Part shown: in pieces, positions 1-34,666 of the stretch | Numbering within the stretch: the first letter of the stretch is position 1 | How the letters are laid out: the number at the start of each line of letters is the position of its first letter | Assembly (NCBI RefSeq): GCF_003334255.1 | Contig: NZ_QOWU01000051.1 | Length of the DNA stretch: 41,368 nt | From: Escherichia coli | Lineage (GTDB): Bacteria; Pseudomonadota; Gammaproteobacteria; Enterobacterales; Enterobacteriaceae | Reading direction: 5' to 3' (one strand) | Notes under the pieces: generated by a model | Told to the model about the DNA's origin: nothing | The model's input: only the letters and a program-made list of their open reading frames with translations | The model's database searches: none | Position numbers and translations under genes: made by a program

Positions 1-77
1 AATCGGTGGAGCTGCATGACAAAGTCATCGGGCATTATCTGAACATAAAACACTATCAATAAGTTGGAGTCATTACC
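1..77 (+). mobile_element. insB: IS1 right-end fragment: last 19 codons of insB plus the terminal inverted repeat (IRR); the element body lies left of the window
   Basis: Frame 3 of 3..62 translates to [19 protein letters not shown]-stop, which I recall as the InsB C-terminus. Bases 55..77 (atcaataagttggagtcattacc) are the reverse complement of the IS1 IRR GGTAATGACTCCAACTTATTGAT. The same 77 bp recur inverted at 41292..41368. Confidence 0.85.
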
Positions 78-282
78 TAAAATGACTGGTTTAGTAAAAT
101 GGTTTAACGCAGATAAAGGTTTTGGCTTTATCACTCCTGATGATGGCAGCAAAGACGTTTTCGTCCATTTCACCGCCATCCAGAGCAATGAATTCCGCAC
201 GCTGAACGAAAATCAGAAAGTTGAATTTTCTATTGAGCAGGGGCAACGTGGCCCCGCGGCAGCGAACGTTGTTACGCTCTAA
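78..282 (+). pseudogene. cspG: Cold-shock protein CspG, 5'-truncated at about codon 3 by the IS1 junction; an 82..282 ORF from the internal Met5 remains
   Basis: The ORF product ...[66 protein letters not shown] matches CspG from residue 5. The expected N-terminus MSNK and the native leader are replaced by IS1 sequence ending at base 77. Confidence 0.6.
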
Positions 283-481
283 GGTTGCCATTATTACTCA
301 ACATCTCCATTTCCGCTGTCCATGTTGTCATGGTTCACAGTACCGCACATCGGCATTCGATGTGACGGAGCGAAACCCTTTGGGCGCTAAGTGTATTTTT
401 TGTAAATCGACGATGATCACCTTTGATAACGTCGCGCTGCAAATACGCACTGACCATGCGCCGCTGGATTTCACAAAATAA
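221..481 (+). CDS. ymcF: Small zinc-ribbon protein (CPCC...CIFC), YmcF-like; start uncertain, the true product is probably shorter than the 86-aa ORF
   Basis: ORF between cspG and ymcE with two CxxC pairs. The ATG at 221 lies inside cspG; no canonical start is obvious after the cspG stop. Confidence 0.3.
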
Positions 482-686
482 TATCAGGCTCCCTCGTGGA
501 GCCTTTTTTATATCTGCCTTATTTTTCTTCAACGCTGTATGTATAGTAAGCGATAACCTGTTGATTATTGAATCTTTCGGGGAGATGGCTTATAACATTT
601 CTTACCTGACCAGGGTACCGGGAACCAACACCTTACTGGCGTGTTGCTGTCTTTTAAGACCAGAAGAGGTTAACAGTGAATATTGA
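456..686 (+). CDS. ymcE: Small membrane protein YmcE (Sfa), 76 aa
   Basis: Internal Met of the 423..686 ORF gives [34 protein letters not shown]...; hydrophobic, at the K-12 position between cspG and gnsA. Confidence 0.5.
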   Translation: MRRWISQNNIRLPRGAFFISALFFFNAVCIVSDNLLIIESFGEMAYNISYLTRVPGTNTLLACCCLLRPEEVNSEY

Positions 687-849
687 AGAGTTAAAAAAAC
701 AAGCCGAAACGGAAATCGCCGACTTTATCGCGCAAAAAATCGCCGAGCTGAACAAGAATACAGGGAAAGAAGTCTCTGAAATTCGCTTCACCGCACGAGA
801 AAAAATGACCGGGCTTGAAAGTTATGATGTCAAAATCAAAATAATGTGA
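676..849 (+). CDS. gnsA: GnsA-family small protein, 57 aa, GTG start
   Basis: GTG at 676 preceded by agaggt; translation MNIEELKKQAETEIADFIAQKIAELNKNTGKEVSEIRFTAREKMTGLESYDVKIKIM, stop at 847..849. Absent from the ORF track because it is under 60 aa. Confidence 0.6.
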   Translation: MNIEELKKQAETEIADFIAQKIAELNKNTGKEVSEIRFTAREKMTGLESYDVKIKIM

Positions 850-897
850 TTTTGTGAACATCACCCCGTGCGAGGTGATGTTCCGCTTGTTGCTAAT

Positions 898-1971
898 TTA
901 GTGACCAATCATTGGCGCTTGTGGAATTAAGCGTCGGTACAATTCCTCCGGCACCGGGCTTTGCCATACTCCCGCATACATTGCGTAACCAATCACCGCG
1001 AACATAATCCCCAGAACCAGTAGCGTCATTAACCAGCCAGACAACGCAAAAGCTTTTTTATTTGCCGCAGGTTTTTGCAGTGAAAAGGTCAATGTTGAGG
1101 CTACCGGACATGACTCTACGCAAGTCATACAGCCGGTACATTCCACTGTTCGTACCTGAATTAATTTATCGACCGGGATCCGTGATGGGCAATTTTTTGC
1201 GCATTTGCCACAGCCGATACAACTTTCGGCATTGCGACGAATCTTAAACGGCGATAATAGCGAAACCACGCCCATCAGCGCGCCATATGGGCAAAGATAA
1301 CGACACCAGGCATGGCGAATAAACAGGCTGGCAATCAGCAAAACGGTCACGCTGATTAATGTCGCGGTCCCCATATGACGAAAGAAATCGAGCATTTTTA
1401 CGTCCATCACCACGCTGTAGGGCGACAACATAAAATAGTGAATCGCCTGAGCGGGCATCAATAACGCGATATAGAGAAAAAAACTCAACAGCAAATACTT
1501 CACGCCGCGCAGAGGAATATCCAGCCAGCGGGGAAGGACACATTGCCGACCAAACAGTTTGTTACCGAGATCGCCGATTAATTCAGAAAGCGTACCAACC
1601 GGGCATAACCATGAGCAAAAGGCCTTTTTGAGTAATAGACTGATGACGATAAAAGCGACCAATAACAGCATCGCGGCGGCGTGGACGGACGGTAACTGAC
1701 CTGTTGTAAGGCTATATTTCAGATTCATCAGACCGGCAATCGGTAGCCAGCCTTCGATACCTCCCGGTCTGGCGACAAATGTCGTGCTACTTGCCGTTTC
1801 GTAATAGCGCACCCAATACCAGAACGTGATGGCAATATAAATATTCATTGCCAACAGTAATAATTGCGTCGCTTTACGCCAGGTCGTGGCATTGCGCCAG
1901 TCATTCCACGGTAATTTGCCGCCCGTCGTGCCTGGCCGCCGCTGCCAGCGGGTTCTTTTTTTCTCTGCCAT
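898..1971 (-). CDS. yccM: Polytopic membrane 4Fe-4S ferredoxin-type protein YccM (NapH/MauN-like)
   Basis: 357-aa ORF with several TM segments and CxxCxxC...CP motifs (CIGCGKCAKNCP, CTGCMTCVESCP). Confidence 0.9.
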   Translation of the reverse strand: MAEKKRTRWQRRPGTTGGKLPWNDWRNATTWRKATQLLLLAMNIYIAITFWYWVRYYETASSTTFVARPGGIEGWLPIAGLMNLKYSLTTGQLPSVHAAAMLLLVAFIVISLLLKKAFCSWLCPVGTLSELIGDLGNKLFGRQCVLPRWLDIPLRGVKYLLLSFFLYIALLMPAQAIHYFMLSPYSVVMDVKMLDFFRHMGTATLISVTVLLIASLFIRHAWCRYLCPYGALMGVVSLLSPFKIRRNAESCIGCGKCAKNCPSRIPVDKLIQVRTVECTGCMTCVESCPVASTLTFSLQKPAANKKAFALSGWLMTLLVLGIMFAVIGYAMYAGVWQSPVPEELYRRLIPQAPMIGH

Positions 1972-2042: not shown

Positions 2043-4787
2043 TCAAATCGCGTTCAGGTCTTTCTTATTCAACCATGCTTCCAGATCGGCAACACTGCGT
2101 GTAATTTCTTCGTGTGGAAGGGGGGCAGATAATGGCTGCTGCTCCAGTTGTGCGCATAGCTGGCTGGCGATACGCATTCCCAGACTCGAGCAACTGCTTT
2201 TTAGCTGATGCGCGGCACGCTTTATTTTCTCGCTATCCTGACTGGCGCGGGCAATGTCGATTTCATCGAGAAGCGGCAGGGCATGTTGTGTAAATAATAC
2301 CAGCCATTCGTGGATCTTCTCCGTCCCCATTAACTGAGCATCTTCATTGAGTTGCGATACATCCAGCGATTGATCGTTATTGACTTGCAGTTGGAGATAG
2401 TGCGCCAGTAACTGACCGAGCACTTCACGCGGCACCGGTTTAGGGATAATCCCGCGGAATAATGAACTGGTACGCTGGCGCAGCGTTTCGTCAATGACAT
2501 GGGCGCTAAAGCCAATCAAAACCAGCGACGGATATTGCTGTGCCAGTTGTCGGGCAAGCGTAATGCCGTCGACATCCGGCAGATCAAAATCCACCAGTGC
2601 GGCAGCAAACGGTTCGCTATTTTGCAGTGTCTCTAAAGCCTGCGCGGCATTGCCAACAGCAACAACCTGCGCACCACTGGTGTTCAGCATCTCAACGGTA
2701 ATTCGCTGGGTTAGCGGGTTATCTTCAATTAACAGCAAACGTAAACCGTCAAGACGCACCGCCTGATTGACTGTTTTTGGCACGGGTGCCGTGGCAACAC
2801 GTAACGGCAAGCGTAAACAAAAACAGCTTCCAACCTCCGGCGTGCTGGTGGCGCTCAGTTCGCCGCCCATCGCCTGGGCCAGACGGCTACTGATAGTCAG
2901 CCCCAGCCCGGTGCCGCCGCGTTTGCCGCTTACCTGCACAAATGGCTGGAAGATTTCTGCCAGTTTCGCGGGATCAATACCGCAGCCGCTGTCTTCCACT
3001 TCGACCAGCCATTGCTCGCCATCAGTGCGACTACGCAGGATAATGTACCCTTCGTCAGTAAAACGCAGGGCGTTGCTCAACAGGTTGGTTATAACCTGAC
3101 GAATACGTCGTGGATCGCCCATTAACGCGCACGGCATATCATCGGCAATTGCCGTTGCCAGGCGAATCGGGCGACCTTTCACCCGTCCGCTCATTAATTG
3201 CAGGGTACTTTCCAGCAGCGGGCGCGGTTCAAAGGGCTCATCGCTGACCGAAACATTCTTGCCACCTGCTTCGATAGCGGAATAATCGAGAATATCGTTG
3301 AGGATGGTCAGCAACGATTCACCAGAGTCAGTAATTGCCCGCAAATCATCACGCTGGGCGTTAAGTGCGGGGTTATCTGCCAGCAGTTGAGCAGTGCCGA
3401 GAATACCGTACAGCGGTGTGCGGATCTCATGGCTCATCGCCGCCAGAAACGCCGATTTTGCCTGGCTGGCTTTTTCTGCTTCCGCCCGTGCCTGTCGGTG
3501 TTCTATCACCAGTTCCTGCAATTCAGCTGTACGCGCTTTGACCTGCGCCGCCAGCTGTTCGCGGTGGCGATTCAGTGCATGAACATTGCTGCGAAACGCA
3601 TCCATCAGCCGCCCGATGGTATCCAGCTCCCGTACGCCAGCGGTTTCCGGGAAAGGGGAGTCAATATCACCGTCCAGCAGCCGTTGCAGCGCCTGCGTTT
3701 GTTCGGCAAGTGGACGCGTGACTGAGCGATAAACCACGCGCCAGAGGATCAGAATCAGTGCGCAAAGTGAAACCATCCCCAGCAATAACAGGCTGTATTG
3801 CCCGCGTGCACTCGCTTTTTCCAGATGCGCCAGTCCGTGCTGATTACGCAGCTCAATGGTGTCGACCAGCTGACTGACTTCGCTACTAAACTGCGCGAAC
3901 TGGGCGATGTTATTTTGTGCGAGAGTTTGTAGGTGATTGCTGATTTCACTGTCCTGCTGATACAGCGCCAGCAAATCGCTATATTGGCTAACGGTAGTTA
4001 ACGTTGTTGCGACCTGCGCACGAACACCCGGATCTTCAATGCGTATTTGCCGACGTTGCAGAATTTTCACCGCATTATTGAGCTGCTTTTCCAGCGTTGG
4101 TGCATTTTTCTGGATCTGCTCCAGCCCCAGATTCATCACCATTTGCTGCACCCGCAGAGCGCTAAGGCGCAGTTCATTCATCTGGTTAACATACTCAAGA
4201 TCGATATCAATCAGCCGATCGAGTGCACTTTCAGCAGCCTGACGCTGATCTTGTTCGATCAAATCGTAAATCCCGGCCTGGGTCGCTCCAGCGGAAGTTG
4301 TCGCATTATTCGCCTGACCTTGCGCCAGGCGTGCGATCTCATCGGCGGCAGCGACTATCTGCTGACTGAGTTGCTGTTGTTGCTGGCGCAGTTGCAAACG
4401 CTGCCCCACCAGTTCCCCTTGCTGACGTAACGAACGGGAGATCTCCTGCTCCTGTTGTTCAATAGCGGTGGTATCAAAACCTTGTTCCCGTAACGCTTGC
4501 AGCAACGCATTAATCTTCAGGCTTTGTGCGGTGAGCATTCGCCCCTGCGCCTGCCACATCTTTTCGTTATCGGCACTGGTCAGGTTCTGCGCGGCGAAAA
4601 GTTCCCAGGCGCTGGCTTCGCTCAACTGGCGCGCCATATTCATGGTAGGAATCAATGCCTGAGTGTTGTCTTTTTCCACCTGGCTGATAAAGCGCAGGTT
4701 GTACCATCCCACCAGGGTACTGGTCAGGGTTAACAGCGCCATCAGGGCAAAGCCCATCCAGAGTCTTCGGGTCAGGGTTAAATTCAC
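2043..4787 (-). CDS. torS: TMAO sensor hybrid histidine kinase TorS
   Basis: 914-aa ORF with an N-terminal TM/periplasmic region, HisKA (SHEIRTP), receiver and C-terminal HPt domain; sits divergent from torT. Confidence 0.95.
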
Positions 4788-11007: not shown

Positions 11008-11028
11008 CGTCGTTTGTGCGCCTGAAAA

Positions 11029-33601: not shown

Positions 33602-34666
33602 ATGGTAACGTCCTGTACTGGACATGTTTTAGATAATCAACGCGCCACCACTCGCGGAGTTTTCTCCTCCGGTAGTCATCTCGTCACTTTGCATTTTCAA
33701 CCTCATCCTTTCTTTTCATGTGTTACCGACGCCGTAAACGGTGCGCGTAGCCGTTTTTCGGCATTTTATCCAAAAGCAAACTATGGCTTACAAGGAAGCC
33801 AACCCTCTGATGTTCGTGCGCATAATCGCGCTGCCAACGGCGCGTGTGATGAATACAAACAACTCAAGGTGCTCTCCATGGGAAGACAAAAAGCAGTGAT
33901 CAAAGCTCGTCGCGAGGCAAAACGTGTGCTGAGACGGGATTCGCGCAGCCATAAGCAGCGTGAAGAAGAATCGGTCACCTCGCTTGTGCAGATGGGCGGC
34001 GTAGAAGCCATTGGTATGGCCCGCGACAGTCGCGATACTTCGCCCATCCTCGCGCGAAATGAAGCGCAATTGCACTATCTGAAGGCTATTGAGAGTAAGC
34101 AGCTGATATTCGCCACGGGCGAAGCCGGGTGCGGAAAAACCTGGATCAGCGCAGCAAAAGCGGCAGAGGCCCTGATACATAAGGATGTCGACAGGATTAT
34201 CGTCACCCGTCCAGTTCTGCAAGCCGATGAAGATCTTGGCTTCTTACCTGGAGATATCGCAGAAAAGTTTGCTCCCTATTTTCGCCCGGTCTACGACGTG
34301 CTGGTCCGGCGCTTAGGGGCTTCCTTTATGCAGTACTGCCTGCGACCGGAAATAGGGAAGGTGGAAATTGCGCCGTTCGCCTATATGCGTGGACGTACCT
34401 TTGAAAATGCAGTCGTCATTCTTGACGAGGCGCAGAATGTGACTGCCGCGCAAATGAAAATGTTTTTAACCCGCCTCGGGGAGAACGTGACGGTTATCGT
34501 CAACGGTGATATCACGCAATGCGATTTGCCTCGCGGCGTGTGCTCCGGATTAAGTGACGCGCTGGAACGTTTCGAAGAAGATGAAATGGTTGGGATCGTC
34601 CGGTTCGGTAAAGAGGACTGCGTACGTTCGGCACTTTGCCAACGTACGCTGCATGCCTACAGTTAA
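33602..34666 (+). CDS. phoH: Phosphate-starvation-inducible ATPase PhoH
   Basis: 354-aa ORF with a Walker A motif (GEAGCGKT); Pho box upstream. Confidence 0.9.
   Translation: MVTSCTGHVLDNQRATTRGVFSSGSHLVTLHFQPHPFFSCVTDAVNGARSRFSAFYPKANYGLQGSQPSDVRAHNRAANGACDEYKQLKVLSMGRQKAVIKARREAKRVLRRDSRSHKQREEESVTSLVQMGGVEAIGMARDSRDTSPILARNEAQLHYLKAIESKQLIFATGEAGCGKTWISAAKAAEALIHKDVDRIIVTRPVLQADEDLGFLPGDIAEKFAPYFRPVYDVLVRRLGASFMQYCLRPEIGKVEIAPFAYMRGRTFENAVVILDEAQNVTAAQMKMFLTRLGENVTVIVNGDITQCDLPRGVCSGLSDALERFEEDEMVGIVRFGKEDCVRSALCQRTLHAYS

Follow-up and report, generated by a model that had tools for sequence, protein, structure and literature searches.

Two conserved small-protein genes and one doubtful open reading frame at the cspG-ymcF-ymcE-gnsA locus of Escherichia coli

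The closest described relatives of the locus analysed here are those of Escherichia coli K-12, where YmcF and YnfQ (PF23641 'YmcF-like'; b4723, b4724) are both annotated as starting at an ATT that lies 11 nt behind a cspA-family gene, namely cspI in the case of the paralogue ynfQ. Other E. coli genes with AUU start codons are infC and pcnB, and in infC this codon serves the autoregulation of IF3. In published transcriptomes cspG and ymcF change together, and so do cspI, ynfQ and ynfN. The second family is that of GnsA and GnsB (PF08178; GnsA crystal structures PDB 4XO1, 4XO2; K-12 b4517, b1550). Overexpression of GnsA is described in the literature as raising unsaturated fatty acids, an effect that was confirmed with ASKA clones and has been reviewed, and multicopy gnsA is described as suppressing secG-null and fabA6. 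The suppressor of fabA6 in Sugai 2001 was reportedly gnsA rather than sfa/ymcE. The third is YmcE, or Sfa (PF15939 'YmcE_antitoxin'; NF007379; K-12 b0991). In the literature ymcE-gnsA figures as a type II toxin-antitoxin pair, with the paper on the GnsA structure given as the source, and growth arrest by the toxin together with its neutralisation by the antitoxin is claimed in the secondary literature.

The window analysed here, a stretch of 41,368 nucleotides of E. coli DNA, contains the known cspG-ymcF-ymcE-gnsA locus, whose three small genes were annotated long before, so that detecting them is no discovery. An ORF listing of the window gives three frames, 221..481 (TTG, 86 aa, including FRCPCCHGS...CIFCK), 423..686, within which ATG 456 yields the 76-aa ymcE product, and 676..849 (GTG, 57 aa); gnsA is thus included in the mechanical listing. 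In the mapped RefSeq and K-12 annotation ymcF occupies 293-481 (ATT, 62 aa), ymcE 456-686 and gnsA 676-849, forming a cluster of 557 bp in which ymcF and ymcE overlap by 26 nt and ymcE and gnsA by 11 nt. The initial annotation had reported three small ORFs at these places, with these gene names and with mutual overlaps, and it was right on each point: the products are exact matches to YMCF_ECOLI, YMCE_ECOLI and GNSA_ECOLI of E. coli K-12, and each belongs to a Pfam or NCBIfam family. We also agree with its remark that these small proteins are poorly characterised. The features of the locus are as follows.

1..77, plus strand: right end of IS1, including the insB stop TAA (60-62) and the terminal inverted repeat, which ends at 77; cspG follows without a gap from its nucleotide 9
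78..282, plus strand: cspG remnant, which in comparison with intact cspG is without promoter, cold-shock 5'UTR, Shine-Dalgarno sequence and the first 8 nt
281..284, plus strand: AAGG, a Shine-Dalgarno-like motif that overlaps the cspG stop (TAA 280-282) and lies 8 nt before the ymcF ATT
293..481, plus strand: ymcF, encoding a 62-aa four-cysteine zinc-ribbon protein with an ATT start (RefSeq/K-12 annotation, PF23641)
456..686, plus strand: ymcE (sfa) ORF, 76 aa, as annotated (PF15939, NF007379), doubtful as a protein-coding gene
486..510, plus strand: intrinsic terminator of the cspG-ymcF transcript, a 7-bp GC-rich hairpin (486-504) followed by a T-run, from a pattern scan
555..675, plus strand: block preceding gnsA whose nucleotide sequence is conserved, with promoter-like hexamers, a presumed 5'UTR and GAGG at 666-669
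676..849, plus strand: gnsA, encoding a 57-aa protein with a GTG start (RefSeq/K-12 annotation)
858..888, plus strand: hairpin 3' of gnsA (858-881, read from the sequence) and mapped RNA 3' end

The Qin locus cspI-ynfQ-ynfR-ynfN-gnsB has its csp gene, zinc-ribbon gene, terminator and gns gene in the same order and on the same strand. We consider it likely that the locus in the window is made up of two transcription units of prophage-moron ancestry and one ORF, ymcE, that is probably not a functional gene. By comparison between genomes, ymcF and gnsA are real and conserved small-protein genes, with unusual starts (ATT and GTG) that the same comparison sets. The three ORFs had been treated alike in the initial annotation, which had proposed conservation and codon-substitution analysis as a check; ymcF and gnsA show the strong codon periodicity and purifying selection expected of coding genes, but ymcE, which spans the terminator and the gnsA upstream region, has no coding signature.

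The gnsA product of the window has the same sequence as K-12 GnsA and shares about 67% identity with Qin GnsB; the Shine-Dalgarno sequence and start are at the same position. It matches PDB 4XO1/4XO2 ('Protein GnsA') over residues 1-57 with an E-value of about 1e-31, and PHROG 2301 with E = 1e-33; PF08178 is present in all GnsA homologues. The pN/pS ratio of gnsA is 0.06, and its variable columns are distributed 7/1/18 over the three codon positions. That the gene starts with GTG, as first proposed, is borne out by the alignment of GTG 676 with the ATG of prophage gnsB homologues and by the GAGG (666-669) found 6 nt upstream. The two types nevertheless differ, since the chromosomal gnsA type has GTG and a distinct, highly conserved leader, whereas the prophage gnsB types have ATG and are preceded by ynfN. 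Two loci with GnsA of 76-79% identity (L097, L098) were discarded as divergent orthologues, being E. coli assemblies with homopolymer indel errors.

The presumed leader lies in the block 555-675, where 11 columns out of 120 are variable; among the third-codon positions of ymcF and gnsA the figure is 38 out of 107 (Fisher p = 1.6e-6). Hexamers in the block, read by eye, are TTGATT (561-566), TTGAAT (568-573) and TATAAC (591-596), and the motif GATTATTGA...TTTA is common to it and to the upstream regions of prophage gnsB and of Citrobacter. A consensus promoter scan gave no promoter in window 513-600 and none upstream of Qin gnsB, so that the proposal of a gnsA promoter here rests on the conserved hexamers read by eye. 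A structured-RNA reading of the leader was dropped, as folds of 596-690 and 555-690, on both strands, were no more stable than shuffles (z = +0.88, -0.82, +0.67); the leaders of the gnsA and gnsB subfamilies are too dissimilar, both in length and in sequence, to permit a test of covariation. Downstream, a 'primary' Term-seq 3' end has been mapped for gnsA at K-12 position 1052279 (Adams et al. 2021, PMC7815308), corresponding to window 888. In our model gnsA would form a separate transcription unit, with its promoter and leader probably in the block 555-675, and translation directed by the GAGG Shine-Dalgarno sequence would start at GTG 676 and give the 57-aa GnsA.

The other unit, in strains with an intact locus, would be a bicistronic cspG-ymcF transcript ending at the intrinsic terminator 486-510. 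Term-seq 3' ends at K-12 1051900/1051901, corresponding to window 509/510, were obtained in three conditions, and the site has an intrinsic-terminator score of 8.09 and is not Rho-dependent (Adams et al. 2021, PMC7815308). In a search of 400-720 against Rfam, the only match was to STnc220 (RF02077), a Salmonella sRNA, with 439-519 aligning to the whole model; its score of 34 bits falls short of the gathering threshold, which is 60. The consensus of this model translates to YIRSGQVPLDFRK*, that is, a YmcF-like C-terminus plus terminator, and the STnc220-like element fits the description of a 3' end of ymcF-like mRNAs better than that of an sRNA gene in its own right.

Between these two units runs the ymcE frame, which starts in the 3' end of ymcF, reads through the hairpin and T-run of the terminator, located 54 nt into the ORF, and then covers the conserved block upstream of gnsA. 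Its 76-aa product is identical to that of K-12, and the T-run encodes the hydrophobic stretch 'GAFFISALFFF'. The pN/pS ratio of ymcE is 0.71 and its variable columns are distributed 13/8/10, with no codon periodicity, against control ratios of 0.04 for ymcF and 0.06 for gnsA. Over 555-674 its synonymous sites are conserved like the non-synonymous ones, with a pS of 0.019 compared with 0.21-0.23 in the neighbouring genes. No Shine-Dalgarno sequence was found upstream of ATG 456. The frame stayed open over 483-675 in 2.5% of shuffles of the same composition when the frame was given and in 7.8% when any frame was allowed, and its being open is therefore at chance level. The size of protein clusters was dropped as a proxy for constraint, as it is not comparable among proteins.

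The ORF is also unstable within the genus. Its ATG is found in three of seven Escherichia lineages, with AGG or ATA in four of the six lineages other than that of the window; single-nucleotide deletions break the frame in E1V33, E. whittamii and E69, the last of which lacks 2 nt further upstream too, and the SCPM lineage has a 6-nt deletion and a premature stop. Homologues of ymcE are confined to E. coli, Shigella and E. albertii, many in truncated or frame-shifted forms. The great majority of E. coli genomes carry an intact ymcE, which is annotated everywhere, and its C-terminal reading frame is retained in E. albertii and in two gnsA-type Citrobacter loci. On these comparisons ymcE appears to evolve without constraint at the protein level and not to be a conserved partner of GnsA-family genes, and it is most likely neither a functional protein nor an antitoxin.

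A reading that we regard as slightly more likely than not denies ymcE the status of a gene and takes the 'GnsA-YmcE toxin-antitoxin system' for an annotation artefact. The ORF would result incidentally from the cspG-ymcF terminator together with a cis-element of about 120 nt upstream of gnsA, a promoter or leader under strong nucleotide constraint that possibly controls cold-dependent expression of GnsA. The chromosomal locus, unlike Qin, has no ynfN, and the frame that spans the terminator happens to stay open there as far as gnsA; ymcE arises as a consequence. The same reading extends to Pfam PF15939, to the RefSeq product names and to the lists of toxin-antitoxin systems, and describes GnsA as a modulator of membrane lipids.

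The alternative that survives best, although we regard it as unlikely, is that ymcE encodes a genuine young protein of E. coli and E. albertii that acts as the type II antitoxin of GnsA and is expressed by read-through or from transcripts of the cspG promoter. The two genes are indeed adjacent and co-oriented, with the ymcE stop (684-686) falling inside gnsA; PF15939 is described as a 'putative antitoxin' and RefSeq names GnsA an 'addiction module toxin'; the pair figures among the listed E. coli toxin-antitoxin systems; the ORF is intact in most E. coli; and a phenotype has been reported for the ASKA ymcE clone, namely a small effect on butanol tolerance. Nevertheless, besides the missing purifying selection, periodicity and Shine-Dalgarno sequence, the start is lost or the frame broken in most sister lineages, in all of which gnsA is intact. 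With regard to a single operon, a working intrinsic terminator lies within the ORF, as does the promoter-like conserved block upstream of gnsA.

The distribution of ymcE among gns loci points in the same direction. A YmcE-like sequence is present in one of 79 prophage gnsB loci, the single case being an E. coli chromosomal fragment. Of the same loci, 73 contain YnfN, 72 contain a YmcF-like gene and 69 contain a Csp gene. With ymcE absent from the other 78, the pairing of a YmcE antitoxin with a GnsA toxin is poorly supported. Among eight Citrobacter loci examined, six have no ymcE-like similarity at all, and in the other two it is partial, confined to about 40 residues of the C-terminal frame and without an ATG. 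Multicopy gnsA is tolerated without ymcE and was beneficial in several screens. Although the name of PF15939 implies an antitoxin, the comparative tests support neither a selected protein nor a conserved pairing with GnsA.

Still less probable, in our estimate, is that YmcE has no function as a protein while its translation is regulatory. Ribosomes crossing the hairpin 486-504 would suppress termination, the TGA at 684-686 would be coupled to the GTG of gnsA, and expression of gnsA would in this way be linked to the cold-shock translation of cspG-ymcF. The geometry is suggestive, as the ORF spans the terminator, its stop overlaps codons 3-4 of gnsA and the ymcF stop is only 5 nt before the hairpin. 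There is also a parallel in Qin, where the positionally equivalent ynfR spans the terminator after ynfQ and reads the hairpin in the same frame as the N-terminus of ymcE (KAPSGAF against RLPRGAF); an SPA-tagged YnfR protein was detected and found to be strongly cold-induced, and translation across such terminators thus does occur. The ATG of ymcE, however, is not conserved in the genus, the frames of the different lineages diverge downstream of about 614, a Shine-Dalgarno sequence is lacking, and Term-seq shows that termination does occur at the site (Adams et al. 2021, PMC7815308).

Turning to ymcF, its 62-aa product is identical to K-12 YmcF, and the two have in common the ATT, a location 11 nt behind a cspA-family gene and the CxxC...CxxC pattern; both the location downstream of such a gene and the near-cognate start, by which the YmcF-like family is recognised, are thus found here. 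Of 31 distinct homologous contexts, representing 87 loci, 30 retain the ATT and the remaining one has ATC; TAAGG or TGAGG precedes the start in all 31 unique contexts, with the ATT 8-9 nt further on. The pN/pS ratio of ymcF is 0.04 and its variable columns are distributed 3/2/20, the length of the homologues is 62 aa in 26 of 27 variants, and the protein matches the PF23641 HMM with E = 3.9e-50, residues 1-62 aligning to model positions 1-62, its full length. Genome comparison thus places the start of ymcF at the non-canonical ATT 293 rather than at TTG 221, and the earlier opinion that the real starts cannot be fixed from sequence was too pessimistic for both ymcF and gnsA. A start at TTG 221, which would make ymcF overlap the last 62 nt of cspG and encode 86 aa, can hardly be correct: the frame is open from 206 and the mechanical ORF list gives this TTG as the first canonical start, but four of the six other Escherichia lineages have TCG at the codon and a fifth, E. 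albertii, has ACA, the extension 221-280 has a pN/pS of 1.95 in the ymcF frame and so follows the cspG frame, the Pfam model spans the 62-aa protein end to end, and alternative starts are excluded in many paralogues because an in-frame stop lies 13-14 codons upstream of the Phe of FRCPCC (42 loci, including K-12 ynfQ).

The four-cysteine zinc-ribbon motif noted in the initial annotation is real, the CxxC pairs Cys9/Cys12 and Cys34/Cys37 being invariant in 12 aligned homologues; distant representatives retain these four cysteines and vary at Cys11. The AF2 model is of moderate confidence (pLDDT 69.7), its weak structural matches are all generic zinc ribbons, and no PDB entry reached an E-value below 1 in a Foldseek search. 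YmcF is accordingly described as a putative zinc ribbon formed by Cys9, Cys12, Cys34 and Cys37. Like infC and pcnB, ymcF and ynfQ have a conserved ATT initiation codon. In ymcF this codon comes after a stop codon overlapped by the Shine-Dalgarno sequence, an arrangement that points to possible coupling by reinitiation. In this model ATT 293 would be the translation start, and because the AAGG overlaps the cspG stop and the ATT is 8 nt on, translation of ymcF is probably coupled to that of cspG by termination-reinitiation. As nearly all homologous loci have the gene immediately after one of the cspA family, YmcF most likely acts in the cold-shock response.

In the source genome itself this arrangement is disrupted. 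The initial annotation had placed the cluster beside cspG, and the gene is there, but it had missed that the gene is interrupted, with an IS1 end joined to its nucleotide 9. Window 1-77 is 100% identical to K-12 IS1D (positions 1470-1546 of the K-12 locus L002), and window 78-1200 matches positions 2470-3592 of the same locus. The next in-frame ATG of the remnant is at 82 (Met5). The match to the Rfam cspA thermoregulator (RF01766) scores 106 bits (gathering threshold 78) and covers model positions 85-428 only, with the 5' end cut; the long structured 5'UTR that precedes the csp coding sequence in intact strains is absent from the window because positions 1-77 are IS1. The IS1-cspG junction was found in one piece in none of 5,426 complete E. 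coli genomes, and in the nearest strains cspG is intact and IS1 is absent from the site, for which reason an IS1D-mediated deletion was withdrawn as the sole reading of the junction. The ymcF gene itself is no different from that of K-12, but the cspG upstream of it is cut by IS1 and the native cold-shock promoter is missing. The IS1 end leaves cspG without promoter, 5'UTR or start codon, so that neither cspG nor ymcF is likely to be expressed on cold shock in the source genome.

The doubt over ymcE is in itself a modest annotation point. Databases and modelling papers treat YmcE as an antitoxin, however, and the label spreads to counts of toxin-antitoxin systems, to structure predictions and to machine-learning training sets. 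The ATT of ymcF and the GTG of gnsA are pinned by comparative genomics alone, and finding the starts of small genes is thus not hopeless even without ribosome profiling. With cspG, and probably ymcF too, severed from its promoter by IS1, the cold adaptation of this strain could be affected.

The window is a piece of the E. coli chromosome. Its positions 78-1000 are 100% identical to many RefSeq strains, in which cspG, ymcF, ymcE, gnsA, yccM and torS are annotated, and positions 78-1200 differ from K-12 MG1655 at 2 positions. When annotation from K-12 and RefSeq is mapped onto the window, it gives three small genes beside cspG, all read on the strand presented:

293-481, ymcF, ATT start, 62 aa
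456-686, ymcE, ATG start, 76 aa
676-849, gnsA, GTG start, 57 aa

The same three frames are present in the mechanical ORF list, and their products equal the UniProt K-12 proteins at every residue. All have family models: YmcF matches PF23641 (YmcF-like, E = 3.9e-50), YmcE belongs to PF15939 (YmcE_antitoxin) and NCBIfam NF007379, and GnsA to PF08178 (GnsA/GnsB), with crystal structures 4XO1 and 4XO2. The cluster noticed in the initial annotation is therefore real, and its genes were already known, with nothing new among them. Elsewhere in the window, and unrelated to the cluster, Rfam matches above the gathering threshold were found for Ysr251 (34468-34661, minus strand, 189 bits), naRNA4/CssrE (11019-11097, minus strand, 69 bits) and ES036/CssrF (16984-17026, minus strand, 38.5 bits).

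The initial annotation also held that the starts of these genes could not be fixed from sequence, which was too pessimistic for ymcF and gnsA, where comparative evidence is available. For ymcF, the suggested TTG at 221, overlapping cspG, can be ruled out. This codon is replaced by TCG in 4 of the 6 other Escherichia lineages and by ACA in a fifth (E. albertii), and in many paralogues, K-12 ynfQ (42 loci) among them, the frame is interrupted by a stop 13-14 codons before FRCPCC. Read in the ymcF frame, the extension 221-280 has a pN/pS of 1.95, and thus follows the cspG frame. The 87 loci compared, all with the motif, reduce to 31 different upstream contexts. In 30 of these the sixth codon before the Phe of FRCPCC is ATT, and in the remaining one it is ATC; in every context this codon lies 8-9 nt downstream of TAAGG or TGAGG, a Shine-Dalgarno-like motif that overlaps the stop of the csp gene in front. 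In the contexts with an upstream stop, the remaining candidate starts are this conserved ATT and a further ATT, not conserved in the window. From this geometry, translation from the ATT may be coupled to that of the csp gene by termination and reinitiation.

From 293 onward ymcF is under strong purifying selection, with 45 synonymous and 6 non-synonymous differences (pN/pS 0.04) and variable columns at the three codon positions of 3/2/20; in each of the other two frames the ratio is near 2. The protein has 62 aa in 26 of 27 variants, and Cys9, Cys12, Cys34 and Cys37 are invariant even in distant representatives, with Cys11 variable. Its AF2 model is of moderate confidence (pLDDT 69.7), and the structural neighbours found are weak, all generic zinc ribbons, with no significant match among them. 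The family is small (35 representative clusters out of 1.84 billion), though this count is probably too low, since ATT starts escape gene callers. In published transcriptomes cspG and ymcF change together, as do cspI, ynfQ and ynfN. At 439-519 there is also a sub-threshold match to the Salmonella sRNA STnc220 of Rfam (34 bits; gathering threshold 60). Translated, the STnc220 consensus reads YIRSGQVPLDFRK and a stop, which is how YmcF/YnfQ-like proteins end, and the terminator of these genes comes next. STnc220 therefore resembles the 3' end of a ymcF-like mRNA more than an sRNA gene in its own right.

The window begins inside IS1: positions 1-77 are its last 77 nt (insB stop at 60-62, inverted repeat to 77), joined to nucleotide 9 of cspG. 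This junction was found in one piece in none of 5,426 complete RefSeq E. coli genomes; in K-12 and ST361-type strains IS1 lies further upstream, beyond cspH, and the strains nearest to the window have an intact cspG and no IS1 here. As the window starts within the element, the junction could be either a simple insertion or an IS1-mediated deletion. Under both readings the rest of cspG is severed from its promoter, cold-shock 5'UTR, Shine-Dalgarno sequence and ATG, which is why the Rfam cspA-thermoregulator match lacks its 5' end, and this strain has probably lost the cold-shock expression of cspG and of the ymcF coupled to it. A GGAG at 67-70, contributed by the IS1 end, stands 11 nt ahead of the next in-frame ATG (82, Met5), and read-through from IS1 might therefore still yield a truncated CspG.

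The GTG start of gnsA at 676 is well founded, being preceded by GAGG at 6 nt and aligned exactly with the ATG of at least 30 distinct prophage gnsB-type genes, and the 4XO1 and 4XO2 structures span residues 1-57. Its coding signature is equally clear (pN/pS 0.06, variable columns 7/1/18). According to the literature, plasmid-borne gnsA or gnsB increases the 16:1 and 18:1 fatty acids, and several mutants with membrane-related defects are rescued by it. Apparently divergent GnsA sequences at 76-79% identity were discarded as assembly errors: in an ENA metagenome contig and in GCA_053291565.1, ymcF, gnsA and yccM are broken by many homopolymer indels.

In every test run ymcE differs from ymcF and gnsA. 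Its ATG lies within the 3' end of ymcF with no Shine-Dalgarno sequence before it, and 27 nt beyond the ATG the frame runs into a hairpin (486-504) and T-run. Term-seq places RNA 3' ends here, at K-12 1051900/1051901 (window 509/510), in 3 of 3 conditions, with an intrinsic-terminator score of 8.09 and no Rho dependence; the site was classified as internal to ymcE (+54) and -166 from gnsA (Adams et al., PMC7815308). The hydrophobicity noted initially is present, as the stretch GAFFISALFFF, and is encoded by the 3' arm of the hairpin, the T-run and the T-rich DNA beyond. Homologues are confined to E. coli, Shigella and E. albertii, and a large number are truncated, extended or internally frame-shifted. 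Of seven aligned Escherichia lineages, four have AGG or ATA in place of the ATG. A 1-nt deletion near 614-620 occurs in two, a 6-nt deletion and a premature stop in one, and in another 2 nt and 1 nt are missing at separate sites. The non-overlapping part has a pN/pS of 0.71 and variable columns of 13/8/10, so that no frame stands out, and the coding signature expected of a conserved gene is absent. An open frame of this composition arises by chance in 2.5% of shuffles in a given frame and 7.8% in any frame.

At the nucleotide level, the block 555-675 is conserved despite the frame-breaking indels. Only 11 of its 120 columns vary, roughly as at first and second codon positions, whereas for third positions of ymcF and gnsA codons the figure is 38 of 107 (p = 1.6e-6); indels of 1 and 6 nt are tolerated around 614-620 in the otherwise near-invariant Escherichia block. 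The comparison with E. albertii shows one substitution here and 13 differences in gnsA, counted over its 159 non-overlapping nt. The 5' part (GATTATTGA...TTTA) also occurs upstream of prophage gnsB and of the Citrobacter homologues, and the 3' part in the two gnsA-type Citrobacter loci, one of which also has ynfN upstream and lacks an ATG in the frame corresponding to ymcE. We infer that the block is the promoter and leader of gnsA, with these candidate hexamers, 17 nt apart:

568-573, TTGAAT, part of the putative gnsA promoter
591-596, TATAAC, part of the putative gnsA promoter

A consensus promoter scan did not flag this pair, the leader RNA shows no stable fold and no greater stability than shuffled sequences, and no Rfam family matched the block.

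Databases and secondary literature label GnsA a toxin and YmcE its antitoxin, and the two genes are indeed adjacent and overlapping, as in a toxin-antitoxin pair. They do not co-occur, however: among the 79 prophage loci that carry a GnsA-family gene, ynfN is present in 73, a ymcF-like gene in 72 and a csp gene in 69, and the sole locus with ymcE is an E. coli chromosomal fragment. The conserved order is csp, zinc-ribbon gene, terminator, ynfN and gnsB, the layout of cspI-ynfQ-ynfR-ynfN-gnsB in the K-12 Qin prophage, and the chromosomal locus looks like this module minus ynfN. In Citrobacter and prophage contigs the gene between the ymcF-like and gnsB-like genes is a YnfN homologue, in Citrobacter often extended at the N-terminus (MKKVIVFFNSE...). 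The neighbour conserved beside GnsA-family genes is YnfN rather than YmcE.

By analogy with ynfR (21 codons; positions 1689-1754, minus strand, of the K-12 Qin stretch compared), ymcE may nevertheless be translated to some extent, or its translation may have a regulatory role. ynfR runs through the hairpin behind ynfQ, and ymcE through that behind ymcF (window 483-512), in the same frame (KAPSGAF and RLPRGAF, respectively), and tagged YnfR (21 aa) was detected and strongly cold-induced. Translation into csp-module terminators may be a shared trait of the module. On balance, we lean towards the view that ymcE is neither a selected protein-coding gene nor a conserved antitoxin, and that its frame covers a terminator and a conserved element upstream of gnsA. 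In a locus of low overall interest, this case against ymcE is the most useful outcome of the analysis.
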